Below the pieces are notes generated by a model. That model saw only the letters and a list, made by a program, of their open reading frames with translations. It was not told where the DNA came from and did no database searches. This document shows, in pieces, positions 1 to 56,200 of a stretch of 64,000 bases of DNA; position 1 is the first letter of the stretch; every line of letters begins with the position of its first letter. Location of the stretch: positions 642,101-706,100 of the forward strand of contig NC_092677.1 of the NCBI RefSeq assembly GCF_964355755.1. The letters are read 5' to 3'. Origin of the DNA: Antedon mediterranea. Lineage: Eukaryota; Animalia; Echinodermata. The position numbers and the translations under genes were made by a program.

Positions 1-2416
1 TGGGCCATGAAACCTAGGACGGTAACTCTGTTGATATCTTGTATGTTAAGTATATTTAATTGCTTAAACAGTGGCTCAGAATGTTGCCATGGCTTTTTAA
101 ATAAAATTATTCTAGCAGCCTTTTTCTGGAGTTTAAGAAGGGATTCTAGTGTACTATCATATGTACTGCCCCAAATAATGTTTCCATACTGAAGGTGCGG
201 TAGAATTAATGTATTATACAAATTTGTTAAAATATAATTAGGAAAAAAATGTCTAGTTTTTATCAATATTCCAATAGACCTAGCGGTTTTTTTGCTAATA
301 AGCCTTATATGATTTTTCCAGCAAAGGTTCTCATTTATTACAACCCCAAGAAATGTTAAATTTTTTTGTTGTTCTAAAGTAATGTTATTCATTTTCAATT
401 CAATGTTGGTTGTAATAATACGCCTTTGGGCAGTTTTAAAGATTACGTAATTTGTTTTGCTGGTGTTTAATAAAAGTTTATTAGCTTTGAACCACATATT
501 AATTCTATCTAGTTCCACATTCATAGTGTTTGCCAATGCGTTCAGGTTTTTTCCACACTTGAATCCTGTTGTATCATCGGCAAAGCTAATTAATTCAATT
601 TGTGTACTTGAGTTACATATATCGTTTACATATACAAGAAACAACAAAGGTCCCAAAACGGACCCTTGTGGAACACCAATACTAGTCTCCGTAATATTAG
701 ACGAAGTACCATTTATAAAAACATATTGCTTTCGTGATTTTAAGTAGTTACTGAACCATTTTAGTGTAACACCTCTTATACCATAGTGGAATAGCTTGTT
801 CAGTAATATACTGTGGTCAATAATATCAAATGTCTTTGACAGATCCATAAATGTGGCAATTACGAACTCTTTGTTTTCAAATGCCTTTAGTATTTTGTGG
901 ATCAGATCAATTATAGCGTGGGAGGTTGAATGATTGTTTCGGAAGCCGTATTGCCAATCATTTAGTATATTGTAAGTTTTAAAGTAATTATACAATCTGG
1001 AATGGACTATCTTTTCAAAGATTTTAGAGAAAATTGGTAGTAGTGATATCGGGCGATAATTCGAGGCTAAATGACGGTCCCCTTTTTTGTATATGGGAAT
1101 TACTTTTGCAATTTTTATCTGTTCCGGTATTGAGCCGGAGTGAAGAGATACGTTAAATATATAAGTCAAGGGCTTTACAATAGCATCACCAACTGCCTTG
1201 ACTAACTTTGGTGAAATATCATCAAAACCAGGTGTTTTGTTTGCATCAAGTGATTGAATCACTTTTAACACTTCCTCCTCATTTACATGGTAGAAAAACA
1301 TAGAGTTACTTTGCCTGTTTAGCAGGTAATCAGAGTATTGTGCCGTTGATGGCTCAATACTGTCCCGTACCTTGAGACCAACATTAATAAAATAATCGTT
1401 AATGTGGTTTGCAATAGGCTCACAACCCTCTATGAGTTTGTCACCAGATGTAAAAGTGGATGGAACATTATTTTTGCCTCCACCTGGATTTATAATATCA
1501 TTTATAATATTCCATGTTTTTTTTTTTATTTCCTTTAGTATTGTTAAAAACATTTTCATAATATGATTTCTTTGCCTTTTTGCATGTACGCATAAATGAC
1601 TTATTAAACTCTTTATAAATATCCTTATTTTTAGACGAGGGATGTTTTATAAATTTGTTGTACAACACATGTTTTCTTTTGCTAGACTTTAAGAGTCTTG
1701 AGCTCATCCATGGTTGTTTGAACTTTTTATACTTTTTGTGATTTTCTTGAACTTTTTTTTTTTCAAGTTTTTATTATATAATTTTTTGAAAGTGTTGATA
1801 AAAGCATTGTAAGCATCATCAGCGTTTGTCCTTACATATACATCAGCCCAATCAACAGGTAATAAGTCATTATATAGTTTATTTATATTTCTTTCGTTTA
1901 TTGCATATTTATGAGGTTCTATATTACCGGTTTTTACTTTAATATGTTTGTCGGGCACGGAGTGGATAATTTGGTATACCGGTAAATGATCAGATATGTC
2001 TGAGATTAGTATACCAGATAACATTTGTTCAGAAAGTGTATTGGAGAAAATGTTATCAATTAATGAAGATGTGTTGTTTTGTATTCTAGTGGGTCTTGAA
2101 ATCGATGGGTAGTAGGAATGCGACATCATTACTTCTAGAAAATTATTTACAAAATCAGTCGATGCATGCTTAAGTAAATTAATGTTAAACACGAACTTGT
2201 GTTATCAATAGACGTAAATTGTTTCCTTCCACTAATATAGTTTCTAAACCATTTAAGAGCCGTGCCTGTTATGCCATAGTGTTCCAATTTTTTAAGAAGT
2301 ATATCATGGTTGATGGTGTCAAACGCTTTTGACAAATCAATAAATATTCCGATGGTATTTTTTTTCTTATCAAGCGCATCGGTTATTCGTTCAACCAGAT
2401 CTATAACGGCCATAAA
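1..2416 (-). repeat. Tandem duplicate of 2828-5243 (2827-bp unit = 5'-truncated LINE-A plus ~230 bp of LINE-B); runs off the window start
   Basis: 1-2416 matches 2828-5243 at a constant offset of 2827 (ORFs 457/3284, 1498/4325, 1704/4531). I spotted only two substitutions by eye. Confidence 0.95.
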
Positions 2417-5016: not shown

Positions 5017-5019
5017 CAC
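2572..5019 (-). pseudogene. LINE-A ORF2 (partial endonuclease plus reverse transcriptase), frameshifted
   Basis: ORFs 4531-5019, 4325-4534 and 2572-4386 join into one ORF2 through frameshifts in homopolymer tracts. Confidence 0.9.
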
Positions 5020-7098
5020 GAACTTGTGTTATCAATAGACGTAAATTGTTTCCTTCCACTAATATAGTTTCTAAACCATTTAAGGGCCGTGCCTGTTATG
5101 CCATAGTGTTCCAATTTTTTAAGAAGTATATCATGGTTGATGGTGTCAAACGCTTTTGACAAATCAATAAATATTCCGATGGTATTTTTTTTCTTATCAA
5201 GCGCATCGGTTATTCGTTCAACCAGATCTATAACGGCCATAAAAGTAGAACTGTTTTTTCTGAAACCATATTGTGCATTATTAAGGATGTTAAACTTTGT
5301 GATATAATTATTTACTCTAATTTGAACAATTTTTTCAAGAATTTTTGAAGCGGTAGGCAGAATAGAGATCGGCCTATAATTACTGACGTCACTTTTATTG
5401 CCAGATTTAAAAATTGGAACTACTCTAGCTACTTTCATACTATCAGGGACCATGCCTGTCTCAAGAGAGAGGTTAAAGATATGTACAAGAGGAGATGCCA
5501 CAGCAGCAATAATATGTTTTAGAATGCGATTACTTAAGTTATCAACACCTTCTGAATTTGAATTTTTGATTTGACTAACTATTTCAATGACCTCTTCTTC
5601 ATTCGTAGGATTGAAAAATATGGATTGGGATTGACTCTCTTTCATATATTGTTTAAAGTCAGAATTGTTTACATTTGGTATTTTGTTTGCTAATTCATTT
5701 CCAATGTTGGAGAAGAAGTTATTAAAAGCGTCAGACATACCTTTTGGATCACATACCAAAGTTTTATTACTATGGTTAATTACCTCATTTGGCTTAACAC
5801 TCGATTTTTTTCTATTTAGAACTTCATTTAAAACTGTCCATGTTTGCTTTGAATCGTGTCGAGCTGCATCCAGTTTTTTGGAATGATATTGTTTTTTTCC
5901 GAATTCTAATTAAATGAGTTAATTTATTTTTTTACTTTTTATATATATTTTTTAATAATTGTGTTGGGTTTTTAAGGTATTTTTTATAAAGTTTATTTTT
6001 CCTTTTTATTGAAATCAAAATTCCTGTTGTGATCCATGGTTTTTTCTTTGTATTACCATTTGGCTTATTACTTTTTGTAGGTATGTTATGATCTTTGAGA
6101 TTGGATAGTTTTTTAATAAATAGGTTATATGTTGTATTGGTATCTGTGCATAAATATAGTTCACCCCAATCCTCATTAGAAATAGCAATAAGCAAGTTAT
6201 TTAATGTTGTATCATTAATTATTTTTTGTTTTGTAATTGGAGCTTGTGTGTTAGTATTTAATGACAAGTGTGTTGTCATGAAAATGGGTAAATGATCGGT
6301 AATGTCAGTGACTATTACTCCACAATGCGAAATTTTATCATCATTTGTAATAATATTATCTAAAACTGTAGCAGAAGACGATGTTATTCTGGTGGGTAAG
6401 TTGATTAATGGATTAAAAGATGTTGAGTAAATAATGTTTGTGAATTCCTGTGTTGTTTTTTGAATGTCATATTTTAATAAGTCTTGATTAAAATCTTCTA
6501 AGATATAGCAGTTTTTGTTTTCGCGATTAAGTTTATGTAAGATTTCTTCCAGATCAGAGTTAAATGAGTTTACGTTTGAATTTGGTGGTCGATACAACAT
6601 ACCTACAATAGTATTTTTGCCGTTTGTGTTTATTATTTCTAGAAAAAGTGAATCAATAGAGTTATCATTAAATACAAAATCATCACGTGTTACGGTGTTG
6701 ATTTGTTCTTTTAAATATAGACAAACTCCACCACCGACTCTACCTTCTCTATTACAAGTGTACATATTGTATCCATTGATATTTAATAAGTCAATTGGCG
6801 TGTTCTTATTTATCCAGGTTTCCGAGAAACCAAGTACATCAAACGCACGACCTATGGTATCTAACATAATGCTAATTTCGTCGAAGTGTTTTGGAAGACT
6901 ACGTGCATTCATGTGTAACGTTGTAAAGATACCATCGTTATCAATTTGCGCCTGTAGCTCATTTAGTTGTGTTGGAGTGAAATATTTGCATAAACCAGCC
7001 TCGTCACTTTCAAAGCAATCTAAGGAATGTGTAGGACTCGATTTATTTTCATATTGAGTCGTGCTCATAAAGTAGTATTGGAAAAGAACAAAATACAA
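5014..7098 (-). pseudogene. LINE-B ORF2: APE endonuclease plus RT N-terminal half, frameshifted near 5930
   Basis: APE motifs HMNARSL, SETW, GGGVCLY, YRPPN, EDFN (normally GDFN), PTRIT, LDNI and TDHLP. RT motifs YRPISIL, QYGFR and DLSKAFD. Confidence 0.88.
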
Positions 7099-7330
7099 TC
7101 AATTCACCAAAGCTGTTAAGCAAAATGGCGTTCAAATAAATGACTAAAAACCGGCAGGTTAGCAATACAATAATAAAAAAAAAACAATTTACAATAAAAA
7201 GAATCACAATAAAGCACACACACCAAACAGTTAATGCAGTCTATAATGTATACAATAGTTAAAATTCTGGTTTCAGGGCAAAAACAAGAAATCTCACAAT
7301 TTCACATTTAATGTACTACCACACGGTAAA

Positions 7331-8155
7331 TTAGGTGGAATGCAGTTTGTTGAGATCGGAAAATTTTGTTACGACAATCTTCTTATTATTCTTAGTTAGT
7401 ACATGTATGCGTCCATCTTGGGTCCAGACTGCGGTCAAGGCGGAATTATGCTGGGTTTTGATGGTTCTTAACAATTTCATCCTTTTCATTGTTAGGTTCT
7501 CGTGTATAAAGGTATCGGTACCTTTCAGTTTTCTTTTTGCTTTATAAACTTCATTTCTTTTATTGTATTGAGCGAACTTCACAATAACTCCCCGGGGCTT
7601 GCCGTTACTTGGTTTCTTGGGGCCTAGTCTGTGACTCCTATCAATGTCATTATGATTCACCGTAAGGTTCATCTTAGAACTAAATAATTGTGTAACAATA
7701 TTATCGGTATTCTCACCTACTTTCTCCTCCAGTCCGTGTATCACCAAACAGTTCCTCCTGGAATATTGTTCACTTTCATCCAGTGATTCCCTAATGTCCT
7801 CGATTTCCTGTTCCATTTTCTTCATGCGATCATTCGACTCGTCAAGTTCAAATCTAAGAGCATCCATAGTGGCTTTACTAACAATTTGCATAATATGCTC
7901 AGCCAGTTGGTCCTTGATCATCGATGTTATTTGTTTCGCTAAGTTATCCAATATGTCCGATTTGCCATCAAATAAGAGTTTCAATTCAGATTGGATAATG
8001 CCAGCGATTTCCTTAGAGTCTATGTCGCAATTGGACTTATCTAACTTATTTTCAAGGCAAGGGATGCCTTTTCCTTCAGCCTCTTTTTGGTTACGACGTG
8101 GCCTGGCTGCAGGCTAATCGTCCCTCTGTCCTCCCTTTGGCTTACCACCGCCCAT
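7331..8155 (-). pseudogene. LINE-B ORF1 (coiled coil plus L1-ORF1-like RNA-binding domain) with one premature TAG
   Basis: ATG at 8155 (MGGGKPK..) is in frame with the 217-aa ORF 7331-7984 except for TAG at 8114-8116. Motifs EQYSRRNCLVIHG, DIDRSHRLG, PRGVIVKF, FIHENLT and WTQDGRI are typical of CR1 ORF1. Confidence 0.85.
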
Positions 8156-8340
8156 GTTGCGGGCAAATAAAACACTGAAATCGAGTAAACAAAATTGAAC
8201 AATGAACAATAGTAAACGTAGGTTGCGACTATGTGTAACAATGCATTCAGCTTGTGTGACACGTGAAATGTTTGATTTCCAGGAGCGAGTATTCGACACG
8301 TCTTACTCGCATCGCTTCTCGATTATTTCTCGAAATAACT

Positions 8341-9571
8341 CATCTAAATAACTTGGAAATGTGCTACACCATATTATGTTGCAATAATTTAATACTGGTT
8401 CAATGAGTGATTTGTATATTGTCCAGAGAGCATAGGTTGGTAAAAAATGTCTTACTTTATATAGTATGCCTACATATCGAGATATTTTCCTAGCTGTAAC
8501 ATTGATGTGGTTCTTATATGTGAGAAATTCATCAATATGTACTCCAAGGAATTTAGTCGATTTAACTCTTTCTATTCTTTTATTGTTGACATAAATATTT
8601 ACATTCTCTAAATTACTTGGATTTTGCTGATTGCGGAAAATTATGTAATTAGTTTTTTTAACGTTGATTGATAGTTTATTGCACATGAACCAATCCGAAA
8701 CATTTTTTAGTTCACCATTAACTAGTTCTATGAGCGTATCCAAGTTTTCGTGAGATGCAGATATGTTTGTGTCGTCAGCAAATAAAACAAAAAATAACGA
8801 GTTTGAGCAATTAAATACATCGTTAATGTACAAAATAAAAAGTAGAGGCCCCAGAATTGAACCCTGTGGTACACCGCAATTTATATCCATCAAACACGAA
8901 CTTGTGTTATCAATAGACGTAAATTGTTTCCTTCCACTAATATAGTTTCTAAACCATTTAAGGGCCGTCCTCTTATGCCATAGTGTTCCAATTTTTTAAG
9001 AAGTATATCATGGTTGATGGTGTCAAACGCTTTTGACAAGTCAATGAATATTCCGATGGTATTTTTTTTTTTACAAGCGCATCGGTTATTCGTTCAACCA
9101 GATCTATAACGGCCATAAAAGTAGAACTGTTTTTTCTGAAACCATATTGTGCATTATTAAGGATGATAAACTTTGTGATATAATTATTTACTCTAATTTG
9201 AACAATTTTTTCAAGAATTTTTGAAGCGGTAGGCAGAATAGAGATCGGCCTATAATTACTGACGTCACTTTTATTGCCAGATTTAAAAATTGGAACTACT
9301 CTAGCTACTTTCATACTATCAGGGACCATGCCTGTCTCAAGAGAGAGGTTAAAGATATGTACAAGAGGAGATGCCACAGCAGCAATAATATGTTTTAGAA
9401 TGCGATTACTTAAGTTATCAACACCTTCTGAATTTGAATTTTTGATTTGACTAACTATTTCAATGACCTCTTCTTCATTCGTAGGATTGAAAAATATGGA
9501 TTGGGATTGACTCTCTTTCATATATTGTTTAAAGTCAGAATTGTTTACATTTGGTAATTTGTTTGCTAATT
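8341..9571 (-). mobile_element. LINE-B copy 2, 5'-truncated RT fragment, host of copy 1
   Basis: 8892-9571 is nearly identical to 5014-5695. ORF 8303-8893 has GVPQGSILGPLLF and FADDT. It ends at 9571, where the receptor 3'-UTR paralog of 14602 begins. Confidence 0.88.
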
Positions 9572-9572
9572 T

Positions 9573-12112
9573 ACAAATTCAATAATGTTACAGTAATTTT
9601 AAATTGTATGATAACTTGAAATGTTATTGTAACTTTACATTTTTTTAATAATTGTCTTTTTATGAAATGTATTTTTGTAACTGTAATTGTATTATCGAGG
9701 ACCCCAATGATCATCTTTTGGTGAACGGGCTACCCTCATTAAAAATGAATAAAAAACGTACGATTCATTACTTAACCTCTCAAGGTGTAGTTATTTGTTC
9801 GTGTCTATATTTATAAGGCATTTGAATTAGCATGAGATACTTGAGTTATTGTTGCTGTTGCATTTGCCTACTGATAGGTGACAGTATTTGGATTACAATA
9901 TATAAAATACTTCCTTGATAGGGATGGACTTAATATTTTGTGTAAATGACGACTAAATGGGTGCAAACTTTGTGTACGGTGCAAGAGTATTTGTAATAAA
10001 CGTTCGGTAAACAATTCTGTGCAGTCGTAAAGAGCGGTTCATTTGTCACTTCCGGCATCGATAGGTCTAAATTAAATTTGTTATTTTATGGCAATGAAAC
10101 AATTATGAGTTGGGAGAGGAGTTAAGTTTTGTCAACGAAATATACTAGACGGCCGCCGGATCATCAAACATAAGGTATGTCATTACTATAGAACTTCGCC
10201 CGAGAGCTGGTATCCCAAACTCTCATTTTGATATTCCATTACTGATAAAACCTCTATACCATACTCTCTCGATCCCGGTGGAAATGTAGTTTATAAACTT
10301 TCCAGTACAATTCTAGCAATGTTGATACCGGCCTTCCCCAATGGATACATTTTCCCTCCTCTCTCTGCTGATATACATTAGCTGTTTCCTTTATAGGGAT
10401 GGACTTATTTTGTGCAAATGACGACCAAATTAGTGCGAACTTTGTGTACGGTCTAAAGTATTTTGTTTTTAAACTTACGTTTTAAAATTCTTTATAGTAC
10501 TAAAGAACGGTTTATTGCCGCTTCCGGCATCGACAAACATACATGTAAATTTATGAAAGAATTATGAATTGGACCCGGGACTTTCCCCACTAAATTCTTA
10601 ATTGTGTCTAGTCACGTGTAGTGGCATGATAATACAATCCTGTACTACCTATTGAAATGGGGTTGTAATGTGGTTAAAACACTGTATTTGTTGGACAATG
10701 AAATGTATTAGGTAAATTATCTAAACATCGTTAAACATTCTTTCCATTTACGATAGGTAGCCTACACGAGTAATTGAATTGTGGATAATGTTATCAAAGA
10801 AGGATATTTATTTGCATCTTTTTCTTTTATGCTGTAAGTAATCTAATATGGTTCTATTTGTGCTTTGTTTTTTTTTTTATTTTGTAAAATTACAAAGTTA
10901 TTATAATACTGGAATACTTCTTCATTTTCTACATTGTTTTCTGCCTTTGATATTTTATTCGGACCCCAATGGAAACTAATTCTTTTTCTTAGGATTAATT
11001 GGGTTGTCCTGAATTCATCATCAAATGTTTCTCCTTTGTTTTCTCTCTTATGTTTTTTCATTTGACTGTTTTTATGTATGATATTTTTGATGTTTGGATT
11101 AAAAAAAAAACAAACAATATCATTCTGTACAGTAGTATAAAACACTTAAAAGTAAAAACAATCCCATTATTGTTTGATCATGTTCTATTACTTTTTTGTT
11201 TAACAAATTCAGTCTTACGAAAATATGTTGCTGTAACAGTGACTGTTGATGACATAGATGTAGCTGAAGGATCTGAAGCAAGAATAACATGTAACATTGT
11301 ACCAGCTAGCAGTGGAGCTGTTCCTGTTGTAACATGGTATAATGTTACCAATGGGGCAAATGATTTAATAGCAGCTTATCAAGGTGGATTTGGAACAATA
11401 GAACCAGGTTACATTGACAGATTTAGTGTTGAAAATGACATTACTCTTGTAATTACCAACACTCTCAGAATTGACAGTGGAACATATCAATGTAGTGTCA
11501 ATTTAGTTGGAGATAGTCCATCAGTTGATGATGATATATGCACACTGACTGTAAATTGTGAGTACAGTAACTCCTTAATTAGGTGTGGTACATAACTTGA
11601 GTCTTATAATTCTCATAAATTGAAATGCTGTTTGTCAATAGGATAGGACGGTCAAAGGTTTAAAGAGGAATCCTAGTTTAAAATTTCTCTTATCGTTCCA
11701 GTCCTTAACAGTGTATTAAGTGAAGACAAAAAAGGATAGGCCTATGTTGATAGAAGATTAAACAATATTGCTTTTACTCAATAACTTACTGTTTTCTTTA
11801 AATTTTACCAAATATAGCCTAATAATATGAATTATCCTTAAATTTTATAGATTTAGATAAACCCGAAATGAACTTTTTGACACTTGTAACTGAAGGAGAT
11901 GAAGTTGTCATGACCTGTGTTGTGGATTCGAGTCCAGAAGCTATGTGCAACTTTATAAAAGATGGTGACGTACTACCACATGATGGTTCATGTACGTTTA
12001 CAATTCCATCAGCCAGTCGTGCTGATGATGGAAGTTATGAGTGCGAGGCGGATAATGGTGTTGGTAACAAACAAAAAAGTGACAATAGAAACCTAGAGGT
12101 ACAATGTAAGTA
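9573..12112 (+). repeat. Segmental duplicate of 14602-17130 (tandem gene-duplication unit of ~5.03 kb)
   Basis: Near-identical sequence at an offset of ~5020-5029, covering 3' UTR, promoter, signal, V and Ig2 exons. Similarity stops just after the Ig2 splice donor. Confidence 0.92.
10577..10586 (+). promoter_or_regulatory. Canonical NF-kB site GGGACTTTCC upstream of the receptor-1 signal exon
   Basis: Exact kB consensus about 200 bp before the ATG. Its function is not shown. Confidence 0.5.
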
Positions 12113-14447
12113 GTTTGTGATGATTTGATGTTAAGGTAAAATGATGATCAGATCTAAGTTTATAATTCTAAAATACACTAAAATGGGCCGCCATGTGTGC
12201 TAATTAATGTAGGATTGCAAATGCCAATAAATAGATATCTACAATGTAGGCCTACACGTTTAAAAGAATGGTGACATGACATAATTGTCACGTGGTGATT
12301 AAAATACATCAACAATCCGTTAATCGCAGTAGCGAGTGGGACGCGGAAAAATGTTTATTTACCAAGACCAAATCTTATATAGGCGACATGGGTTACGTTA
12401 CGGTTTAAACAAGGTTTAAACAAATTATTAATGTTATAGGTTTAAAACTGAACAATTAAACACACGACTTTTGGTTTTCAGATAAACCTGATAAGGATAT
12501 TGCAAATGATCAGACTGTTCCTCCTGGTGAGACTTTTACAATAACATCTACTGTAACAGCTAATCCTTCTGACGTCACTTATTTGTGGACTACTGATCTT
12601 CCTGGGAATGAAGATTCTGTCAACTATCGACCAACATTTACACTGAAAGTATCGGAAACAGAGGTTGATGGCACTATTTATTTAGTAAATATAACAGTTA
12701 CAAACATCATTGGATCAACAACGGATTCAGCTAATATCACAATATCTGGTAAGATTTTAAATGAAATGATATCCATGAGAAATATTTTAGCTTTATCTAC
12801 TGGATACAACTGTGAATACCAGTGATTCTGAGATTGATCTAAATGTTATCTGCTAGCTTCATTTTTGGTATTAGGTGTTAACTTCATCAATTCATTTTTG
12901 TAAAATATTAAAGCAAACGATGGATGGACTGGAATTGCATTTAACATGAGCAAGATTTATACAATAGTAGTTTAACTATAGATTGTTCATTAAAATACAA
13001 TTAAGTAGTTGATGTATCGATTTGTTAACTATAAGTAATAATTATTTTAATTGCATAGCAAGTATTACTAATAATTGAGGTAATTTATACTGTACAAACG
13101 ACTTAAACATAAAAACAGTCGTTTAGGAGTATGGAAATGTATACTACTGTATTATGCTATGGATGTATTAGTTCCTTCAACTTAGTTCATTTAAATTTTT
13201 CCTAAAACTATTTCAGTAATTATGACTGTTGTTATGAGTTCTTTATTTAATTATAAATGTCATTTCATATTAATGTTTGTGTTAAGGTACAGAGTAACAA
13301 TTTATATTTTCCATGATCAACTGCAATGCAATTAAAAAAAAACACCCAGTTTTTAATTAGAATATAAAAATCACCATATTAAGCACAAGTAAGATAACCA
13401 TTATGAGATCATGCCACTGATGCGCTGAGCTAGCAGGCCTATTACAAACTTGTTTCATTTAGTTGATGAGCGTTTGCGTGTTTTCGGTTAAAAAGAGCAT
13501 TAAGTCAACAGTTTCAGTCAAAACCACGTCTATACCAATTACAAGTAAGCGTCGTTTAAATAATGAATTTGTGTTTTAGATATTCAGTACTGGAGTTTCA
13601 TACAAACGACATTGGCTCATATTCTAAAATATCAGATTTTACTACAATTTAATTTCAATATCAATATACACCCGTTATGTTTACATATTGAAATAAACAA
13701 ATCATATAAAATACATTGATAGATTAGGACTGTAATATGCTAACAAAAAACATTTTCCTTCAGAGACAACAGCCGAGTCATGTAATGATACTACGGGTCT
13801 GACCATCGGGATGTTCTTTGTTGGCATCATACTTGGTGTCTTAGGATTTTACATTGCAGAAATTACTCACAACAAGATAAAGAAGGTTGGTAAAATGCAG
13901 TATGAATATTATACTTATATAACCATTATAATTTTCGAACTATTCATGCTGACAGTGGCAAAAATAATTCAATTGATGGACTACATTCTACTAAAATAAA
14001 TTTCCAACATTATTGCACAAAATATAATTGAAAAACATACAGTAGTGTATACAGAGTAATAATAACTTTATATTAATCTAATAGAAGGCACTGTCAAAGG
14101 AACAAGACGCAGACAAAAGGAAACAAGATGTAAGTATCGATACAATCTATAAAGAGGACAAACCAACGACTGGTAATCCGATTGAAAATATTATGATTGT
14201 GCATACTATATTTTAGTTACTTTTAGTACGATTACCACAAGTTATTGTATTGTGACTTTATTGCTTATTTACTACATTGTATAATAGTTTCTTATGTTAG
14301 CAATCCTTTGCTTTTTAACAGACTTACATGGATTATGGAGGAGACACTGGCGAGCAAAACCAAACCTATCAAGATTTACAACATAAAGTAGAAGAGTCAG
14401 CTTATGTTAATGTTAAGGCTGGGAATAAGCAAAAGGGAAAAGTATGA
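10788..14447 (+). CDS. Ig-superfamily type I membrane receptor 1 (SP, IgV, IgI/C2, PKD-like, TM, tyrosine-motif tail), 401 aa
   Basis: Seven coding exons with GT-AG sites and consistent phases: 10788-10833, 11213-11557, 11851-12105, 12482-12748, 13764-13885, 14085-14129, 14322-14447 (1206 nt, open). N-terminus MLSKKDIYLHLFLLCFLRKYVA. V-set ITC..W..RFS..TLVI..DSGTYQC. TM GLTIGMFFVGIILGVLGFYIA. Tail TYMDY..TYQDLQHKVEESAYVNV. Confidence 0.9.
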
Positions 14448-15810: not shown

Positions 15811-18800
15811 ATGTTATCAAAGCAGGATATTTATTTGCATCTCTTTCTTTTATGCTGTAAGTAATCGAATATGGTTCTATTTGTGCTTTGTTTTTTTGTT
15901 ATTTTGTAACATTACAAAGTTATTATAATACTGGAATACTTCTTCATTTTCTACGTTGTTTTCTTCCTTTGTTATTTTATTCGGACCCCAATGGAAACTA
16001 ATTCTTTTTCTTAGGATTAATTTGGTTGTCCTGAATTCATCATCAAATGTTTCTCCTTTGTTTTCTCTTTGATGTTTTTTCATTTGACTGTTTTTATGTA
16101 TGATATTTTTGATGTTTGGATTCTAAATAAAAACAAACAATATCATTCTGTACAGTAGTATAAAACACTTAAAAGTAAAAACAATCCCATTATTGTTTGA
16201 TCATGTTCTATTACATTTTTGTTTAACACAATTCAGTCTTACGAAAATATGTTGCTGTAACAGTGACTGTTGATGACGTAGATGTAGCTGAAGGATCTGA
16301 AGCAAGAATAACATGTAACATTGTACCAGCTAGCAGTGGAGCTGTTCCTGTTGTAACATGGTATAATGTTACCAATGCGGCAAATGATTTAATAGCCAAT
16401 TATCAGGGTGGATTTGGATTAGTAGAACCTGGATACAGTGAGAGATTTAGTGTTGAAAATGACATTACTCTTGTAATTACCAACACTCACAGAAGTGACA
16501 GTGGAACATATCAATGTAGTGCAAATTTAGTTGGAGATAGTCCATCAGTTGATGATGATATATGCACTCTGACTGTAAATTGTGAGTACAGTAACTCCTT
16601 AATTAGGTGTGGTACATAACTTGAGTCTCATAATTCTCATAAATTGAAATGCTGTTTGTCAATAGGATAGGACGGTCAAAGGTTTAAAGAGGAATCCTAG
16701 TTTAAAATGTCTCTTATCGTTCCAGTCCTTAACAGTGTATTAAGTGAAGACAAAAAAGGATATGTTGATAGAAGATTAAACAATATTGTTTTTACTCATT
16801 AACTTACTGTATTCTTTAAATTTTACCAAATATTGCCTAATAATATAAAATATTCTTAAAATTTATAGATTTAGATAAACCCGAAATTAAGTTTTTGACA
16901 CTTGTAACTGAAGGAGATGAAGTTGTCATAACCTGTGTTGTGGATTCTAGCCCAGAAGCTATGTGCAACTTTATAAATGATGGTGACGTACTACCACATG
17001 ATGGTTCATGTACGTTTACAATTCCATCAGTGAGTCGTACTGATGGAGGCAGTTATGAGTGCGAGGCAGATAATGGTGTTGGTAACAAACAGAAAAGTGA
17101 CAATAGAAACCTAGAAGTACAATGTAAGTAAACTTTTGGTTTATTTCAAGTAGATCACAGATATCTGATCTTTCAAAAAACGATTATATTACTTTAAAAA
17201 CATTATACCAGGTCATTCCGTGTCTTAAATGTACGTTTTATGGTAAATGAGAGAAACAATGCATTACTGTACCTAAAGTAGTTCACTGTGAAAGTCCTCT
17301 CGTGGACGGTCTTAGGCTTAGTTTTATAGGTCTAGCTGGTAAACAGCATTAACATTGTACGCTAGCTATGCCTAGCCTGACGTCTACAGTAGTTGCTGCA
17401 TTAATTGTCTTTCTGTTTTTGCCAGAATCCATTATTACAAATTAAGGAAAACCTGATATTTTCGCTAAAAAGTTACGATTTTTTCTTTTGTTTTGGCAAA
17501 AAAAAAAAAAAATTAAAAAAATATCAATCAGCGCGCAGTGCATGTTGGGATTTATAGCGGACCAACATATTTTTTACCATTTAAAGAGAAAAAAAGTTAT
17601 CGCAATAGGAACATGTAGTATTTATTTTTACATTAAATGTAGTTGGTGACCTTAAATTAGATCTAAAAATGTAAGGAATGGGACTTTAACATGAATTATT
17701 CCATGGTAACTCGCTTTTTATGGGTAGTTAAATTAGTGTATGTGTTGTTACCTTGAGGATAAATAAAATGTTGAAAAGTGTATGAACTATAGTCAAGAAA
17801 AACAAGGCCAACAGCCATTAAGTCGCGTGCTACAATGCATAGTGATACCGGACAGACAGACCGACAGACAGACCGACAGACAGACAGACAGACCGACCGA
17901 CCGACCGACATAGTGAACTATACTGACCAAAATTACTGAGCATGTTTAAAAATGTTGAAATGTTTAAAAACATTTATATTTTTTTAATTTACACGTGCGT
18001 AGCCTGTCACTTTCGACGTGCTCGTATAACGTAATTTCGAGTTGAAAAGTAAGTCAAGAAAACAGAAATCGGGCAAAAAGAATGCGCAATAACATTTAAC
18101 GCGCAGTGCGCGCGCAAAAATATGCGCACTCATGGCAATTTTGTAAACGCTTAAAATTGCCTGAAATGTACTCTTATTTCATCGAAAATAAATTTTGAAA
18201 ATTTTAAGCGCGCGTACGCATGCGTTACATGCGCTACGCACGTAATTGTATTGCCATATGATGATTTATGCCCTGAAATTTATTAGTACCAAATTTTATT
18301 TAATTGTGATTCATGGTTGTTAAGATATGATTACAAACGTGATTTCGTTAAATCGTGCGTAGACCGCGTAATTTTTTATTGCGCACCGTGAAAACATAAC
18401 CACATCGATTCCTGACCATAAGGAATATTCTGTGAAAAATTGACTTAGTTAGATTAAACTGATATCAAGATAAGGTCAGAAAGCGATAAAACGCATAGTG
18501 ATACCGGACCGACAGACAGACCGACAGACAGACAGACAGACAGACCGACCAACCGACCGACATAGTGAACTATAGAGTCGCTTCCACGCGACTAAAAACC
18601 AAAAATAATCATTTGTGTAGGACATGACCAAAAAAAAAAACGAAATTGAAATTCTCCTCATACCAGTAAGCTATTGTTGAAAAGTTATTAACCTACAAAA
18701 TGGTATGTAACGTCAAGAATACTTTGAAATAATGTTATAAATGTCCATTATTAAATTTTAAATGGTATAAATTTTGGTAACTTACATGTCCAGGATATAT

Positions 18801-19684
18801 GAATGTCTATAGAAACAATTTGTTCACAAGATTAATTACTGTAAACTTTCTTAAATATCAACTAAAAATGCAGTATTGTACTTTAGAAAACTAAAGTCTT
18901 TCACTTGTAGCCCAACAAATAAATTTATGAAAACTTTAGGCCTATGCTTAAGTAACTCGCCTTACATAAATTAGTGCTGTTGAAATCACGTTGCTATTTT
19001 TTTCATATTTTCAGAAAAAGAAATTACAATAATTATTTTTGTTCATAGAAGTATAACTTATATGTTATGCAGGAAAGGTATAGAATTTATAATTACTGAG
19101 AATGAGATTTTCAGGTCATGTCCATTTCTCATGGAAATGCCCATTAGAATAACTGTGTCTAAAGTTGTAGGTATTTGAGCTGTACTGAAAAAAAAACATA
19201 TTTACAAGATAAGATAATGTCATGAAGAATCAACTGAAGTCTTGTAATATTTCTGAAAACAATTATGTTCGTTTCATTGGTTGAAATCCATATTTACATA
19301 CCGACCACCCCATTAAGCTAGTTAATATGGTATGATAAGCTATGTCATTGTTCTGATATTTGTGGTACATTTTTTATAAATAATAAATTGTATTTCACTG
19401 TTTTTCAGTTAAACCTGTTGCTAATGATGATAATGATATAAATGATCAGATTGTTTTCCCTGGTGAAACTGTTACAATGACATTCAGTGGAATAGCGAAT
19501 CCCCCAGACATCACTTATCTGTGGACTACTGATGTTCCTGGAAACGAAGATGCTGTCAACAATGGATCATCATTTACAGTAAAAGTGTCGGAATCAGAAG
19601 TTGATGGTGCTTTTTATTTTGTTAATTTGACAGTTACAAACAGCATTGGATCAACAACTTATTCAGCCAAAATCACAATATCTG
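15811..19684 (+). CDS. Ig receptor 2, 5' half (SP, IgV, Ig2, PKD-like); its own TM and tail exons are missing
   Basis: Exons 15811-15856, 16237-16581, 16869-17123 and 19409-19684, all open with phase-1 junctions. Downstream intron similarity to gene 1 ends at ~32493, before the expected TM exon. Confidence 0.82.
17801..18598. mobile_element. Non-autonomous Helentron/DINE-1-like element (GACA family), copy 1
   Basis: Starts AACAAGGCC..AGTCGCGTG, carries (GACA/GACC)n tracts, ends in the hairpin AGTCGCTTCCACGCGACT followed by an A-run. Near-identical copies at 41152 and 43936. Confidence 0.75.
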
Positions 19685-33190: not shown

Positions 33191-33324
33191 ATCTTTTATC
33201 CATGGATACTGTTTACTAAAAAGATTTTAGATGAGTTTCAGATTTTAAAGATACAACTAAGAATTAACTAAATAATACCATGGAGAAATAAGTTAGGATT
33301 TCTCCATGATAACACATAACTCAA

Positions 33325-33397: not shown

Positions 33398-34120
33398 GTA
33401 AGTACAAAATAATACAGAATAATTAAGAATATTGGATGTATAGGACTCGCACATTATTACTTAACAAAACCATGTGCTTGTGTGAGAATAGAGTACATTG
33501 TTTTATTGTATACTTTCCATGTTAATAAAAAGTGTTAATCGGAAATCTGAAGCATGACACATGATTTTTCAATAATATTTTTACAAAATAAATTGCAATT
33601 AATAACATTTAAAGTTTACCATCAATTAACCATTATTTGTACAGTAAGCTTGGCATATGGTACAGTTAAAATGTCATAATCCGTGAACCAAACCAACGGA
33701 AACATTGACATTTTCATACAATATTTCTTGATAACTTTTCTTATTCATTATAATTCTTTGTCTGTTTTTTTCACAGTACAGCTAGTAAATGCTATTGAAT
33801 GATTTTTGTTAAAATATTAAAGAAATTAAAACAGACAGGAAAAAAGTAAATGTACAGTTTTTGCAGCAAATAAAGATATTTTTATTTAAATGCTGCTACT
33901 GTACTGTAAAGTGTATCAAACAAAGTCATAAGAGATAAATTCCATCATTTCAGATTTTATTCTTTAAAAAGTGAATGTTCTTTTAATGTTGTAGAGTTTT
34001 AATTTAATTATTAGTTGCACATGGTTAATTTGATATTGTTTCCTGAAGTTATACATATTTTGGTAAACATTGTAAATTTGTAAAATAAGAAATAATAAAT
34101 ATTTTGTCTATCTCTTACAG

Positions 34121-37100
34121 ATTTTTCAAGTGGTAATGTGATTACTATCAATGTTAATTCTAATACCACTGCTTATAATGTTATTATCACATGCTTTCCT
34201 GGTACAGTAGATGGCAATCCAGTTCCTGATATAAACCTCTATAAAGATACCACCATTATTAACACACAGAAAACATTACCTCTAACATACACAATAGCTA
34301 CTGTGTCAGATGATGACAGTGGAGACTACAGATGTGAAGCAAGTAACAGTGTTGGAAGTGTAACAAGCAATACAATAACACTCGATTACTGTAAGTACTG
34401 TAACAAATTTTGAAATCAATGTTAAATTTCTTTTCTCATTATTTTTAATGAGTTCTAGTATTGACAATATTAGGCAACATTGGTATATTAGATATTTGCC
34501 TTTACAGTATGTACTGTTGTTAAATGTGCATGGTTATGCCTATAAACAGAAAACAATATTTGTATCGGTAGAATCTAGTGTTAGTAACTAATGATAATTA
34601 GACTACCATTCAAGTTTATCGCTTTTATGTGCAAGAATGGCCTATGATAATGCTTGTTTATAGAATCACTATAATTAAACTAACAATTAAATGTAATTAT
34701 GCTTGTCTTCAATATGCAATATCAATTTTCCCCAGATTTAACTGATACTGTCACCATTAGTTCCACCTCAAATGATACCACTATAGTACTAACATGCTCT
34801 GGTTCAGTTGATGGTAACCCATCTCCTGACATAGTCCTTAACAAAGATTGTAATATCATTCTGCAACAATCTACATTACCTATAATATACACAATAGACA
34901 GACCAACAGAGAATGATGGAGGTTATTACACGTGTGAAGCTGATAACACTGCTTTCTCTACAAGAAGCAACGTAGAAAAACTACGCAAGTATTACAAAAT
35001 GTGTATGGTTTGGTAAAATAAAAATAGTAATGTTGAATATCAGATTTCTACTGATTTGTAAGAAGTATTGATAATGCTGATCAATTTATAGTTTAAATGT
35101 TTTTCATGCAAATTTGAATAAATAACTTGTCATCATGTACAAATTGTTTAAAATGAAATGTTTGTATATAAAAAGCTGAATGGTGAAATGAAATGCTATG
35201 CTTAAAAGTCTTATCTATTACTGACTTTTAAAGTAAATGTTTAAAGTAAATTATATTTTTAGATAAACCAAGATACGAGACAACAGAACCAGATACTCTG
35301 AAACCTGGGAAAATCGGTATGATTGCAGTTGAAAATGTTGAAGTGAACCCTGAACGTGTAACTTATATTTGGAGCATTGATGGTGTTGTGGATCCAAATG
35401 CAAATTCTGCATCATTCACATTCACTGGATCAATGGTAGTTGGTACAGTTCATACCATATCAGTGAATGTTACAAATCTCATTGGGTCAACTTCAAAGAC
35501 AATACGGATCGCAGTCTCAGGTTGTTATTCAGTATTCTGTTGTTATATTGGAAGATCCATAATACAAATAAACTCCTGACCATTATACATACAAAAGAAA
35601 GCAATTTCAAAATGAATAGCAGTAGGCCTATTACAGTGCAGTATTAGTAAAAGATTGCTTGTTAATGTTTTTCATTTAGCTACTATAAGATTGAATCAAC
35701 AACAAATTCAGCCAAAATCAAAATACCAACAACAACAATTGTTTAGGCTTATCTATTTTATTATTTAATTGTGCATGTGTTTTTATTCATCATAGAAACA
35801 AGCTTTGGGGTTAAAATATATGCGGCTTATTTCACTTTCGCTTATATCATGTTCTATTCGATAAGTAAACCTATAATAACCTATTCGTATTTATCAATGA
35901 TCTATTTCTACATACTTTAGTTGAAGTTGAATAAAGACTAATAAGCTTAATTCAGTATAGATAATAATCTCTGTTGATACAGTAATAATTATTGGTAACC
36001 TTTACATGTAAATAAAACGTACTTTACTTTTCAGAGCGATCTAATAGCAACACAGGGCTGATCATTGGAATGCTCTTCGTTGGCATCTTCATTGGTGCCG
36101 TAGGATTGTATATTGGACAAATTATTCACAATAAGATAAGGAAGGTATGTTAGGTTGATGATGACTTTAATATTATTCATTTATAATTACAAAACATGCA
36201 GACTTGATACAATCGAAGACTCTGAGCCACTATGCCATACAAAGTACTATAAATTATAATGGTACTTCATGTATTCTAGCAAAGATGCTTTGAATTCGAC
36301 TACAAGCTTTACAACACGTCACAATGTCGGTTATTTGTTTCTATTTAGAAAAAATTACATTCGAGTAGAAGAGATAATTAGGTTATGAACACTTACATCA
36401 TTATCCTTTAAAATGTATTGAAATAAATGGAATTGAAAGACACATTAATGACATGCAAGTAATGACATAATGTTGTTATTTTTTATTTAGAAGTCACTGT
36501 CAGAAAAACAAAACACAGACAAAAGAAAACAAGATGTAAGTATTGATCTATAAATACGATAAAAATGACCAATAAAACGATTAATATAATCAATTAAATA
36601 CAAAATCTTTATTATCCCAAACTGGGAGATTCATTTGGTCGTGGGGGACAAACATCAACAGCCTGTTAAAATACACAAACAGGAAATGAAAGATTGCACA
36701 ACATAATTATGATATAATAATAGCACCGTTATAATAAGAATATAATTGAGAATAATTACCATTCTAAAAATTTAATTCAGCAGAAATGATAAAAGGTAAA
36801 CTAACAAACTAAAGTCAAATAATTTGATTCTAGACTTCTTCCAGTTAGTGTAGTTTGTTGTGCGACAGCACAATTTAAAATTCAAATCATTTAATTAAGT
36901 ATTAATATTAATTAGATCCTTATTTTGAGTTTAGTTTCGTTTTCTTTGTTTACTCACATAGTTTCTAAAAGGCTCTTATAATTGGTCATATGTTTTTCCC
37001 TACTCTGATGTAATTTGTAATTTATACCCACGACCTCCAGATCAAAGCCTGGCGTTCATACCTCTAGACCACCGAGCTTGCGCTGATGGCTAGTGGTTAG

Positions 37101-37387
37101 ATTCGAGCCCAAAAGTAAGCAGCGGGTACTGCACCAACAGGGTTGTAATTGTATTTAACTACTGCGGAGTAGCTTTGCCCTGGCGCAAAGCTACTCCACA
37201 GTAATTAAATACAATTACAGGCCCTTATAAGTTTGCAATTACTGTATTTACTTGACAGACATACATGGATTATGTAGGAGAAAGTAGAGGGCAAAACCAA
37301 ACCTATCAAGATTTACAACATAGAGTAGAAGAGTCAGCTTATGTTAATGTTAAGGCTGGGAATAAGAACAAGAAGGGAAAAATGTGA
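34121..37387 (+). CDS. Ig receptor 3, 3' part (two divergent Ig domains, PKD-like, TM, tyrosine-motif tail); may be spliced to gene 2
   Basis: Exons 34121-34390, 34736-34984 (GC donor), 35263-35520, 36035-36144, 36491-36535 and 37259-37387, all open. TM GLIIGMLFVGIFIGAVGLYIG. Tail TYMDY..TYQDLQHRVEESAYVNV. Confidence 0.82.
37033..37220. repeat. Short interspersed repeat ending in a ~75-bp palindrome; related copy at ~55817-55910
   Basis: Shared CCTCTAGACCACCGAGCTTGCGCTGATGGCT..TTCGAGCCCAA. Hairpin at 37143-37219. Confidence 0.55.
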
Positions 37388-48385: not shown

Positions 48386-49969
48386 CATGTATTTTAATTT
48401 TAGCTGAATACGTTGTTGATCCAATGATGTTAGTAACTGTCACATTAACAGTGCCAGATTCCGATACTTTCAGTGTAAATGTTGATCCATTGTTGACAGC
48501 ATCTTCATTTCCAGGAAGATCAGTAGACCACAGATAATTGACGTCAGGAGGATTAGTTGATACAGTTACAGATGTTATTGTATAAGTCTCACCAGGAGAA
48601 ACAATAAGATCATTTAATTTAAATTCAGGCGTATCTAAAATAGAAAATAAAAGTTGTTGATTATTTATATATAATTAATTTGTACCTAAATGTAGGTAAA
48701 TTATTGTTGGAAAAGTATAAAACCTTATTATTTTGTCCGGCCATGATTACATCCCGGAACGTTACTTAAACTATTTTTGTGTAAAACCCAAATGCAAACA
48801 TTAATGAATCCAATTACATGAATATTATTCCAAAAACATAAAATTATCATTGTATACTTACATTGTACCTCTAGGTTTCTAGAATCACTTTTCTGTTTGT
48901 TACCAGCACCATTATCCGCCTCGCACTCATAACTTCCATCATCAGTACGACTTACTGATGGAATTGTAAACAAACACGAACCATTGTGTGGTACGTCATC
49001 ATCTTTTATAAAGTTGAACATAGCTTCTGTACTAGAATCCACAACACATGTCATGAAAACTCCATCTCCTTCAGTTACAGGTGTCGTAAAGTTAATTACA
49101 GGTTTATCTAAATCTATAACATTTAAGAATAATCTATATTATTGTTGTCGTCGTTGTCGTCGTAACAATTTTAGAAATTAGTAGCACAAGCAATGTTGTT
49201 TAATATTTTATCAACATAATAAAATAACTTCATACAATTTTGAATAAATCCAGATGATTTTGAGTGCATTCACTTTGTAAAACCAGGCACTCACACCAGT
49301 TAATTTAGTTAATTCTTAATCTTAGTTTTATCTTTAAAAATCTCTCTCTTTTTATAATATTTTTAGTGGTAATGTTACAGTATACTCATACACATGACGT
49401 AAAAACAAAATGATTTACTTACAGTGAACAGTTAGTGTGCATATATCATCATCAGCTGATGGAATGTCTCCAACTAAAGTGACATCACATTGGTATGTGC
49501 CACTGTCACTTCTGAGAGTGTTGGTAATTACAAGAGTGATGTCATTTTCAACACTAAATTTGTCACTGTATCCAGGTTCTATTACACCAAATCCATTCTG
49601 ATAAATTGCTATTGTATCCGTTACACCATTGGTAACATTACTCCATCTAACAGTAGGAACAGCTCCACTGCTAGCTGGTACAATGTTACATGTTATTCTT
49701 GCTTCAGATCCTTCAGCTGCATCTACGTCATCAACTGTCACTGTTACTGCAACACATATTATGTCTAACCAAACTATATTAAAAACCATGAATAACGTCA
49801 TACTTTGCATCATATTTAAGACAGAAAAATTATATTTCAATTATTATATCTACTCTCAAATTGTTAGGTACTGTATTGCCAAAACTAACTTGAATTAAAG
49901 ACTAATATAGGTACAGTAAACCTTACCTGTGATACCAATGATGATATAGAAAATATCTTTTAATGTCAT
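48386..49969 (-). CDS. Ig receptor 4 (SP, IgV, Ig2, PKD-like), inverted; no family-type TM or tail exon found
   Basis: Exons 49927-49969 (MTLKDIFYIIIGIT), 49423-49764, 48862-49113 and 48386-48634, all open, with GT-AG sites and phase-1 junctions. Confidence 0.8.
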
Positions 49970-53293: not shown

Positions 53294-56200
53294 ATGATGC
53301 TATCAAGGCAGGATATTTATTTGCATATCTTTCTTTTAAGCTGTAAGTATAATTGAATAGGTTCCATTTTATTTCGTACTACTAGCCTACTCAATGTATT
53401 ATCTGGTAGTTTAAAACATAATTCTAATCAACAATGCTATAAGAACGACACAAAGATTCCATCACCATTTCATGCTTTATGCTTTTATAACCAAACTGAG
53501 TCAATTAATTCAGCTAAATGTTTAATTATCACCTAAAACTACGTAGATCTTTATAATTCTGTACATAGTAAATTTTATTGGAATTTTATATCGTCTTTAT
53601 TTATCAGTAAATTAAAAACCAAACCCACACATCATATTCCTTTTGGGAGGGTGAATATGTATATTAATTAAGTAAATTCTCTTTTATTTGATTTTATCTT
53701 GATATTTTTCATATTAATTAAATAAGTTTTCAGTTTATTATAATAGTCAAATACTACCTTACTTAATGTTTATTATAGGCCTATAAAAAATTGTATTTTG
53801 TATCCGTTCTGTATTTGCATGTTATCCCTCCTAATATTATTGTTATTATATTGGTAAATTAATGTTGCTGTTGGTTTAGGTTTTGAAATAAAACAAATAC
53901 ATAAATAAAAACATTTTCTTGTGGACCATATCACATTCTTAAAGTAAAAAAAACATTAATAGTTGAACCATTACATTTTTGTTTAACACAATTCAGCCTT
54001 ACGAAAATGTTCCGCAGTAACAGTGACTGTTGATGACGTAGATGTAGCTGAAGGATCTGAAGCAAGAATAACATGTAACATTGTACCAGCTAGCAGTGGA
54101 GCTGATCCTACTGTTAGATGGAGTAATGTTACCAATGGTGTAACGGATACAATAGCAACTTATCAGGGTGGATTTGGTGTAATAGAACCTGGATACAGTG
54201 ACAGATTTAGTGTTGAAAATGACATCACTCTTGTAATTGATAACACTCTCAGAAGTGACAGTGGCACATATGAATGTAGTGTCACTTTAGTTGGAGATAT
54301 TCCTGCAGATGATAATGATATATGCACCCTGACTGTTCACTGTAAGTAAATCGTTTTATTAGTACATGTGTATGCATACTGTAACATAACTAAATTACAA
54401 ACTGGGGTGGTTTGAAAAGTAAAAGGATACTCTCTTAATGTAAACGAGTGATATTTCCACTCCAAATTTAGAGTGAAATGATGTTCACTCTTGAATGAGT
54501 GTTAATCCACTCCAATTTGAGCGACTGCCATAATTATTAAGCATAAAACGTACCACTCCTTCAACGAGTGTGCATGTATTCCCGCTCGAACTGTAAACAC
54601 CCACCACTTGACTCCGGGAGTGAAAACTTTTGATCGAGTCAGCCAATCAAATGCAAGCATTTCATAACTTTTCATCGTCTTCGCCCGCGCCCAGGCCGGC
54701 CGATTGACTGTTTCTCTCTCTTTCTCCCGCCGCCGCATTCCAACGAGATGGAGGAATTTTTACACCAGATATTTGGTGAACAAGATCAACATTTAATCAG
54801 GATATTTAATGGTAAATTTACATTTAAAATGTAGCTTTTGTTACCGTGTATTGTAGAAATGATTATATTGTTTTGTAATATGTTTTATTTGCGTGTGAAT
54901 CCTGGTGTGCTAACGCCTAGCCTACTACTACTAGCTAGCCTAGCTAGGCCTAGTAGGAAGGGTGCTGGCAACGCGTACCCAAACCAACTCGTCCCCACCA
55001 TATGCTAACTCGTATCTAGCCTATAGGCGGACCCATACCCAAATTGTTTTGGCATGGGTACGGTACGACGAGTTGACCTGTCTTTATTGTTTTCACTTTA
55101 TTCAACCACTCTTTATTAATTATTATAGACCCGGCTAGGCTACACACATGATATTTACAAATTTCACTTATTATTAAAATAAAACGGTTTTTTTTGTGGC
55201 CGTAACGAACAATGCGCATAGGCCTAGGCCGGATGGCCCTCTGCTGCGGCCTTATTATTTACTAGGCCCAGGCCCTCCTAGGAGCCTGTTGTAGACCTAG
55301 CCTATTCTAGTAGGCCTAGGCCTAGGCCTATGCCTAGCTAGGCCTAGGCTAGGTAGCTAGGATACTAGGCCTATATTCTGAGAAATTTATGAGTAAAATT
55401 GTACTAATTTACTCATTCAACTTTACTTTGATTCTGTGAATCATTTCTCATAGGATATAAAATAAATATTTAACAAAATAAATTTCAGAAAATTTTAGGT
55501 TGATTAGCCTAGGCCCCTACAGTAGTAATATTTTCAATGTTTCAGATTAACTTGGAATTTGAACTGATGTATTCAGGATGCGGATTCAAAATGTTAATCA
55601 AATGGAAGCCATATTACCATCCCAAGTTTGTGCAGATGCATAAATCAAAACTCAGTAAGTTTATAAAGAGTGTTAATTCTTACCTGTTTTATTTAATAAC
55701 TTATTTACACTAATAGGAAGATGTTTTTCCCAACTCTGACGTAATGTGTACCGAATATTCAATACATTTGAAAACAATTGCGAAAAAATATGCAAGTTCT
55801 TGGGTGGAAATCCACAGCCTCCAGATCATCAGGCCTCTAGACCACCGAGCTTGCGCTGATGGCTGGGGTTGAATTCGAGCCCAAGTAAGCAGCAGGAACT
55901 GTACCAACGATGATAATTGTTGTTAATTGCGTAACAACAAAGTTTTTGCGTCAGGGAATACACTCTTCCCTGTTTATACATCGATATAAAACATTACATT
56001 GTAAAGTGTATTGATTGATTAAAACAAGCACGAATGTGCAATACTCGGGGTACAGCGAAAGAAGCTGTATACAGACGTATACAGTTAGAAAGTTAAAGAA
56101 AAATAGGTTTCGCCAGGGCTCGAACCGGGACCTTCTGCGTGTTAAGCAGACTTGACAACCACTACACTACGAAACCTCTTACATTGAAATTGTGGGTTAC

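Follow-up and report, generated by a model that had tools for sequence, protein, structure and literature searches.

By analyzing a 64-kb stretch (64,000 nucleotides, hereafter the window) of Antedon mediterranea, which is AT-rich animal DNA holding a cluster of V–I–I(Cys-less)–TM receptor genes, we found that the variation between the V-set immunoglobulin (Ig) domains of these receptors is biased toward one face. The bias is real and, on the predicted fold, is correctly placed on the GFCC'C'' sheet. The explanation that we favor, at roughly even chances, is that this variable sheet of the tip V domain in duplicated single-pass Ig receptors binds a variable ligand and is kept different by selection amid recombination. 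The front face would likely bind a variable ligand, most likely a microbial one, selection would probably keep this face different between copies, and recombination would shuffle and partly homogenize the remaining receptor sequence. Since CEACAM and similar families are well known for such a face pattern, the front-face finding is ordinary in kind, and the family context, i.e. candidate activating and inhibitory V-domain receptors in crinoids, is the more interesting result.

Genes and exons of the receptor cluster

Four full V exons (genes 1 to 4, G1 to G4) and a truncated fifth were identified in the window. Gene 1 (10788-14447, plus strand) has the order leader, V, I/C2-type Ig, Cys-less Ig, TM and a 66-residue tail, and the translation of its V exon is identical to a stretch of a database Antedon mediterranea protein. 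The 345-nt V-set exon at 11213-11557, proposed in the first-pass annotation, is supported by its AG/GT ends and by its joining to the leader in the RNA-like run X9 (RNA by guess only), whose family contigs are spliced from leader to V, from V to I and from I to the third domain. The following features were placed:

10788..10833, plus strand: gene 1 leader exon (tblastn of P0001; joint 10833>11213 GT..AG in run X9)
11213..11557, plus strand: gene 1 V-set Ig exon, 345 nt, AG/GT ends (Pfam V-set E 3e-11; AlphaFold2, AF2, pLDDT 93)
11851..12105, plus strand: gene 1 second Ig exon, I/C2-type (Pfam Ig_2 E 2e-11; splice joints)
12482..12748, plus strand: gene 1 third domain, predicted Cys-less Ig (I-set-like) fold (AF2 pLDDT 88; Foldseek)
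13762..13890, plus strand: gene 1 transmembrane exon, ends approximate
14085..14130, plus strand: gene 1 first cytoplasmic exon, ends approximate
14322..14447, plus strand: gene 1 last exon, with tyrosine motifs YMDY and YQDL-x8-YVNV
15811..15856, plus strand: gene 2 leader exon
16237..16581, plus strand: gene 2 V exon
16869..17123, plus strand: gene 2 second Ig exon
19409..19684, plus strand: gene 2 third-domain exon, 92% like P0003
33325..33397, plus strand: truncated fifth V exon, F-G strands only, without an AG acceptor at its start
34120..37387, plus strand: downstream unit of two other-class Ig exons, third domain, TM and tyrosine tail, ends approximate
49423..49773, minus strand: gene 3 V exon, start approximate
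53997..54341, plus strand: gene 4 V exon

The V-set assignment of the gene 1 V exon is backed by a Pfam score of 43.9 bits against a cut-off of 26, by ten modelled strands and by the hallmarks C22, W37 and D83-G85-Y87-C89 (codon 1 begins at 11227), and the B-F disulfide cysteines C22 and C89 are kept in all four V domains of the window. For the third domain, the best Foldseek matches of the model were the Ig domains of Axl, titin and Tyro3, and also neurotrimin, i.e. I-set-type domains. None of the top Foldseek rows listed for it is Fn3 by description, and an Fn3 identity was rejected, as the model resembles I-set-type Ig domains instead. A PKD identity was likewise rejected, the Pfam score being below cut-off and a single PKD chain appearing only in 26th place in Foldseek.

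No TM exon of the P0003 type was found for gene 2 within the window. The public model P0002 skips the second Ig and third-domain exons of gene 2 and joins its V exon (V2) to exons 17 kb downstream, thereby linking it to the unit at 34120..37387. On the minus strand, gene 3 starts with the leader at 49969 and reaches a TM exon at 43350-43433; model P0004 of this gene lacks a tyrosine-motif tail. It is inverted and head-to-head with gene 4, and the TM of P0004 differs and comes without an ITIM/ITAM-type motif (42197-49969, minus strand); gene 3 is possibly a decoy receptor. Gene 4, on the plus strand, has its leader at 53294 and closes with a tyrosine tail whose end lies near 61511. The truncated V remnant at 33325-33397, with 3 differences from V2 in 73 nt, is a possible gene-conversion donor. 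Its upstream junction (33258-33397) is also found in organism-B contigs (loose ends), which are without the small palindromic insert present in the window at about 33278-33310.

Other elements were also noted in the window. LINE-type retrotransposon pieces with endonuclease and reverse transcriptase ORFs were recognized by eye at 1-9600 (minus strand), and the segment 1-2416 is repeated at 2828-5243 with 99.9% identity, which may reflect either a tandem duplication of recent date or a duplication introduced in assembly. Just past gene 4 (61800-62221), units of 105 nt, about four in number and 99% alike, form a tandem array, and two tRNA-like stretches were seen by eye in the long intron of gene 4 (56100-56170 and 56385-56450, minus strand).

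Variation of the V domain and its possible causes

The AF2 model of the V domain was built on a 20-sequence alignment and has strands at residues 4-7, 10-12, 18-25, 34-41, 44-52, 55-58, 66-69, 73-76, 85-92 and 100-109, which were named A to G by their order and by V topology; both fold and strand limits are thus predicted. The top Foldseek rows for this model were V domains (aggrecan G1, CAR D1, CRIg/VSIG4, MPZL1 and TIGIT), with P0 and nectin-1 as other near folds, and the identity to these fold neighbors is 17-26%. A PDB sequence search with the V domain returned Robo matches only (4 sequences).

The first-pass annotation described the N-terminal strands as invariant across the four full V exons, and this agrees with the peptide EGSEARITCNIVPASSGA being part of a 59-nt identical run (permutation p=0.0002). 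Positions 10 and 12 of A' do vary among the four V exons. The position within IA[A/N/I/T]YQ, said to be different in all four full V exons, is indeed so, while two of the other quoted states, N in C[S/D/N] and I in [V/A/D/I], stem from the truncated remnant at 33325-33397 and not from the four full exons. The relevant parts of the gene 1 V exon are:

11262..11320, plus strand: 59-nt run identical across all four V exons (A', B strand, BC loop)
11326..11400, plus strand: C, C' and C'' strands, with variable outward codons 34, 36, 38, 45, 47, 50 and 57
11488..11532, plus strand: F strand, FG loop and start of G, with variable outward codons 88, 90, 92, 100 and 102

An N-glycosylation sequon, NVT, is found at 11341-11349 (codons 39-41) in the C-C' hairpin of all four V domains and of most close relatives. 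This conserved sequon adjoins the variable face.

When the DSSP strand limits alone were applied, the number of variable residues was 15 out of 39 on C, C', C'', F and G and zero out of 20 on A, B, D and E (p=0.001), in line with the earlier claim that change is concentrated on the predicted GFCC'C'' face. Inward and outward residues were assigned from the hydrophobic alternation in the family alignment and from antibody numbering, so that side-chain orientation was set without atomic coordinates, after the variation had been seen and hence not blind. With this putative orientation, 12 of the 19 outward front residues are variable, compared to 1 of 12 outward back residues (p=0.003), 3 of 31 core residues and 14 of 48 loop residues. 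The inward residues of the same front strands vary at 2 of 16 positions (p=0.005 against the outward ones). Codons with at least two changed bases are also more frequent on the front (6/19) than among the others (7/91, p=0.01). The same front-face bias was found in six Antedon V proteins (p=0.005) and in seven Anneissia paralogs, with 2.58 front versus 1.83 back residue states (p=0.027); among 12 more distant family members the front-versus-back difference in entropy was not significant (p=0.078). Between the V classes (G1,G2) and (G3,G4), 10-11 of the 19-23 differences are front residues, and between G3 and G4 5 of 12, and it is from this split and from the G3-G4 pair that the face signal arises. 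Taken as a whole, the V domain does not vary more than the I domain (30/110 and 21/83 variable residues, respectively).

Contigs from organism B, of 68 and 72 nt (runs X5 and X7), match the A'-B-BC part of V2 with zero differences. In the 40 of 49 variant rows that were listed, 36 of them with organism-B support, changes occur at 8 of the 19 front codons and 1 of the 12 back codons. Read by hand from the same 40 rows, new organism-B residues are found at codons 45, 55, 57, 59 and 63, the front additions being 45, 55 and 57 and the only back-face addition codon 77. Many of these variants repeat paralog differences of the window and are non-independent, and contigs less than 85% alike were left out.

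Codon tests were performed on the four V exons of the window, leaving out the paralogs outside it (P0003, P0006 and others), and the site models M1a/M2a, M7/M8 and M8a/M8 were run in a purpose-written script. Pairwise V dN/dS values were 0.51-0.63, and the M0 estimates for the V and I domains were 0.40 and 0.39, respectively. With four sequences, the V site models were null (M1a/M2a p=0.93, M8a/M8 p=0.74), including the M7/M8 comparison that had been suggested as a check for positive selection (p=0.86), and the same three comparisons were also null for the I domain. Fixed residue classes (F3x4) gave dN/dS values of about 1.29 for the front, about 0.18 for the back, 0.11 for the core and 0.34 for the loops (heterogeneity p=1.5e-6), i.e. 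near 1 on the front and 0.1-0.3 elsewhere, and under F61 the front value was 1.48. Neither front estimate differs from 1 (p=0.44 under F3x4, p=0.22 under F61); the profile interval is about 0.7-2.4, and at the low power of four sequences values up to about 2.4 are compatible. With a shared synonymous rate, the front (1.28) exceeds both the back (0.17, p=0.0003) and the loops (0.34, p=0.0001). A better fit was obtained with separate synonymous rates for front-strand and other segments (LRT p=0.016-0.028), the rate of the back segments being 0.35-0.42 times that of the front segments, and with such local rates the front dN/dS is 0.75-0.98 and the front-versus-back contrast loses its significance (p=0.08-0.21). 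Counts of synonymous changes are weaker in this respect (codons 11/50 versus 6/60, Fisher p=0.11; run test p=0.07). A post-hoc subset of 14 distal codons, one of three alternative class definitions, had a dN/dS of 1.96 (p=0.039), which became 1.17 with local synonymous rates (p=0.71); under the same local rates another subset gave 1.22. Given the class values and the local-rate results, the front face appears to change at about the neutral rate, with the rest constrained or homogenized. Diversifying selection, as proposed in the first-pass annotation, is compatible with the face bias, but dN/dS does not significantly exceed 1 for the full 19 front codons and the site models give it no support. 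The data fit both selection for difference and relaxation of the front face, and positive selection on this face is unproven.

Between genes 1 and 2, the V exon shows 18 nucleotide differences in 345 nt and 10 residue differences, the very counts given earlier, and 11 of the 18 are bunched within 46 nt (p=0.0001). That the flanks of the two genes are almost identical holds upstream (15 differences in 1211 nt) and for about 200 nt after the V exon, but not elsewhere, with 12/376 differences in intron 1, 10/286 in intron 2 and 15/257 in the next Ig exon. The V divergence (5.2%), taken to stand out from its surroundings, is not significantly above that of the adjacent introns (3.3%, p=0.17) or different from that of the I exon (5.8%, p=0.86), while the comparison with upstream region plus introns gives p=0.001. 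A V-specific acceleration in this pair was rejected. Nor does the pair serve as evidence for front-face change, as no more than 2 of its 10 residue changes fall on outward front-face positions. The similarity of the two genes ends near 12112, and their divergence rises along the duplicated block.

The copies are mosaic. Leaders fall into the classes G1, G2, G4 versus G3, P0003, and V exons into G1, G2, P0003 versus G3, G4. Gene 2 has an upstream region, leader and V flanks of the gene 1 type, and I and third-domain exons nearer to P0003 (94% and 92%, respectively). Furthermore, the third-domain distance is smaller between G1 and G4 (12.9%) than between G1 and G2 (19.1%), whereas the V domain gives 5.5% for G1-G2. 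Recombination within the V exon was not detected among the four V exons, where informative sites are distributed 21:0:0 (one tree), the third-domain topology test was indecisive (AU p 0.21-0.61), and 13 of the 26 inner branches of the V-domain family tree are open. Because no exchange within V is detectable and the third-domain topology is undecided, we infer exchange between copies at the scale of exons only; at this scale the sequence comparisons suggest that the receptor genes are recombination mosaics.

A rival to selection for difference, possible although in our judgment rather unlikely, is relaxed constraint combined with patchy gene conversion, in which the front would drift at a dN/dS of about 1 and the back would be conserved or recently homogenized. 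It is consistent with a front dN/dS of 0.75-1.5 that for the full set never differs from 1, with the null site models, with a synonymous rate in the back segments of about 0.35 times that of the front, and with a gene 1-gene 2 divergence that climbs along the duplicated block and is equally high in the I exon. The presence in the cluster of a broken V and of a gene without its own TM exon also agrees with relaxation. Drift alone, however, leaves unexplained why the front (1.28) exceeds the equally exposed loops (0.34, p=0.0001), as well as the excess of multi-hit codons and the same bias in the paralogs of a second species, and all four V exons are intact with a core dN/dS of 0.11. That chance or artefact produced the pattern, given that the four sequences are related, that one branch dominates and that the face classes were drawn after the variation had been seen, we hold to be very improbable: most front-face changes do lie on one internal branch, and the orientation was assigned without coordinates and not blind, but this reading is largely refuted by the strand-only test on DSSP limits (15/39 versus 0/20) and by the Anneissia paralogs, which are separate data, and paralog variants recur in other runs.

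The front face could alternatively serve a cell-recognition code, where paralogs bind themselves or sister proteins in the manner of nectins, CAR/JAM and Hydractinia Alr, so that the differences would reflect binding specificity and not escape from microbes. We consider this improbable. The near folds CAR D1, MPZL1, P0, TIGIT and nectin-1 point in its direction, as does the concerted change of V classes across one face (10-11 front residues among 19-23 differences), but these fold neighbors are generic V domains at 17-26% identity. To our knowledge, no fusion allorecognition has been described for the solitary crinoids, and broken copies and copy turnover would better fit an arms race. A further point in favor of the code is that Alr combines V domains with ITAM or ITIM tails, as stated in PMC9546547.

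Tyrosine tails and family relatives

Three tyrosine tails in the window have the form YMDY...YQDL-x8-10-YVNV, a pattern found in 0.7-1.9% of shuffles. YxxL/I-x8-10-YVN[V/A] tails were found in P0001, P0002, P0011, P0007 and P0019, of which the Anneissia proteins P0007 and P0019 keep YQD[L/I] and YVN; what is conserved between the species is YVN, which by the definition of PMC5112662 is a motif of the Grb2 type. Compared to the canonical ITAM, Yxx[L/I]x6-9Yxx[L/I], the second half is YVNV or YVNA, making these tails ITAM-like only, and SAYVNV also fits the ITIM consensus. ITIM+ITSM tails occur in P0003, P0039 and P0137, the Antedon and Anneissia tails being homologous (E 2e-11), while no ITIM-type TM or tail exons were found within the window. 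The family thereby contains both the ITIM/ITSM and the activating-type tails of a paired family, and because of these ITAM-like and ITIM+ITSM tails in relatives it looks like a set of convergent CEACAM-style activating and inhibitory receptors. In this scheme YQDL-x8-YVNV would be phosphorylated and recruit Syk/Shark- or Grb2-type proteins, leading to activation, and the ITIM/ITSM relatives would inhibit, as in vertebrate paired receptors.

The V domain of P0003 (XP_071959156, outside the window) is 89-92% identical to V1 and V2. Following the TM, P0003 carries an Ig domain similar to the N-terminal domain of the Anneissia ITIM receptor P0136 (E 2e-11), and may for this reason be a fused model: two neighboring genes could have been joined, unless the domain is a cytoplasmic Ig of a rare kind. 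In the clean ITIM receptors P0039 and P0137, the V domain is only 35-46% identical to those of the ITAM-like ones found. The case for a near-identical inhibitory partner depends on one doubtful gene model, P0003. In the Anneissia proteins P0007/P0008 the stalk contains EGF repeats, and the tail combines a P0003-like segment (LYTQV) with an ITAM-like one, on account of which tail modules seem to be shuffled as well.

Separate searches for relatives of the V family gave 8 proteins, 2 more, and 119 representatives. Of the 20 of these 119 whose names were looked up, 3 are from Antedon, 15 from Anneissia japonica and 1 from Saccoglossus, while 1 carries no name; within this sample the close family is crinoid. 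Several Anneissia relatives carry automatic names such as 'A33 antigen-like' or 'JAM-like'. Immune expansions in echinoderms are usually described for TLR, NLR and SRCR genes, and in the literature covered, which mostly excludes subscription papers, no echinoderm or crinoid ITIM/ITAM paired Ig receptor family was found described.

A more far-reaching proposal, to be taken as speculative, is a crinoid CEACAM/SIRP-style paired system that arose independently of vertebrates, in which a microbial arms race would act on GFCC'C'' and recombination would swap near-identical V domains among ITAM-like activating, ITIM/ITSM inhibitory (P0003) and tail-less decoy (gene 3) receptors. If true, it would be the first such paired system described in an echinoderm. 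A V-domain family that combines opposing tyrosine tails with a variable front face would in any case bring the logic of paired receptors, known from vertebrates, Botryllus and Hydractinia, to the basal class of the echinoderms. About a dozen front residues are named here for the testing of ligand specificity.

Comparison with known receptor systems

The closest match in behavior is provided by the CEACAM paired receptors (human CEACAM1/CEACAM3; Xenopus ceacam, PMC5112662). In that paper nonsynonymous changes of the N-terminal V domain fall on the CC'C''FG face, opposite a sheet that is conserved, and gene conversion, ITIM/ITSM versus ITAM-like tails with YxN, and a V identity within pairs of 80-93% are described as well. 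The likeness consists of a variable front sheet with a conserved back, two tail kinds and oppositely oriented genes in the cluster, and the top language-model look-alikes of the crinoid receptors were clusters named CEACAM and HEPACAM. CEACAM N domains are without the B-F disulfide, whereas the crinoid V domain keeps it (C22, C89); also unlike CEACAM are the Cys-less Ig as third domain and a dN/dS not demonstrably above 1. The likeness is one of behavior.

Hydractinia Alr, described in PMC9546547 as V-domain proteins with ITAM or ITIM tails, shares with the crinoid family the clustering of invertebrate V-I-type receptors with two tail kinds. Unlike in Alr, where the membrane-proximal domain is Fn3-like, the crinoid third domain folds like an I-set Ig, and the V domain is canonical. 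Another difference is that domain 1 of Alr2 is more variable than domains 2-3, according to bioRxiv 10.1101/2022.03.25.485889, while V and I vary equally in the crinoid. Botryllus FF/FcoR is likewise an invertebrate deuterostome system of clustered Ig receptors, whose tails are of the ITIM and hemITAM types (PMC12582321). As portrayed there, it has Sushi domains, receptor-coreceptor pairs and a role in allorecognition; no match to a Sushi domain was found in the crinoid receptors.

Lastly, a V domain followed by a C2/I domain is shared with CTX/JAM/CAR/A33, the nectins and the CD2 family, and CAR D1, CRIg/VSIG4, MPZL1 and TIGIT are at the top of the Foldseek rows. In the CTX family the V domain is split over two exons. 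Unlike CTX/JAM/A33, the crinoid V domain is contained in a single 345-nt exon, and the receptors have an extra third Ig domain and tails ending in tyrosine motifs, at an identity of 17-26%. As it departs from defining features of CEACAM, Alr and CTX, the crinoid family appears to work like them while standing outside all three.
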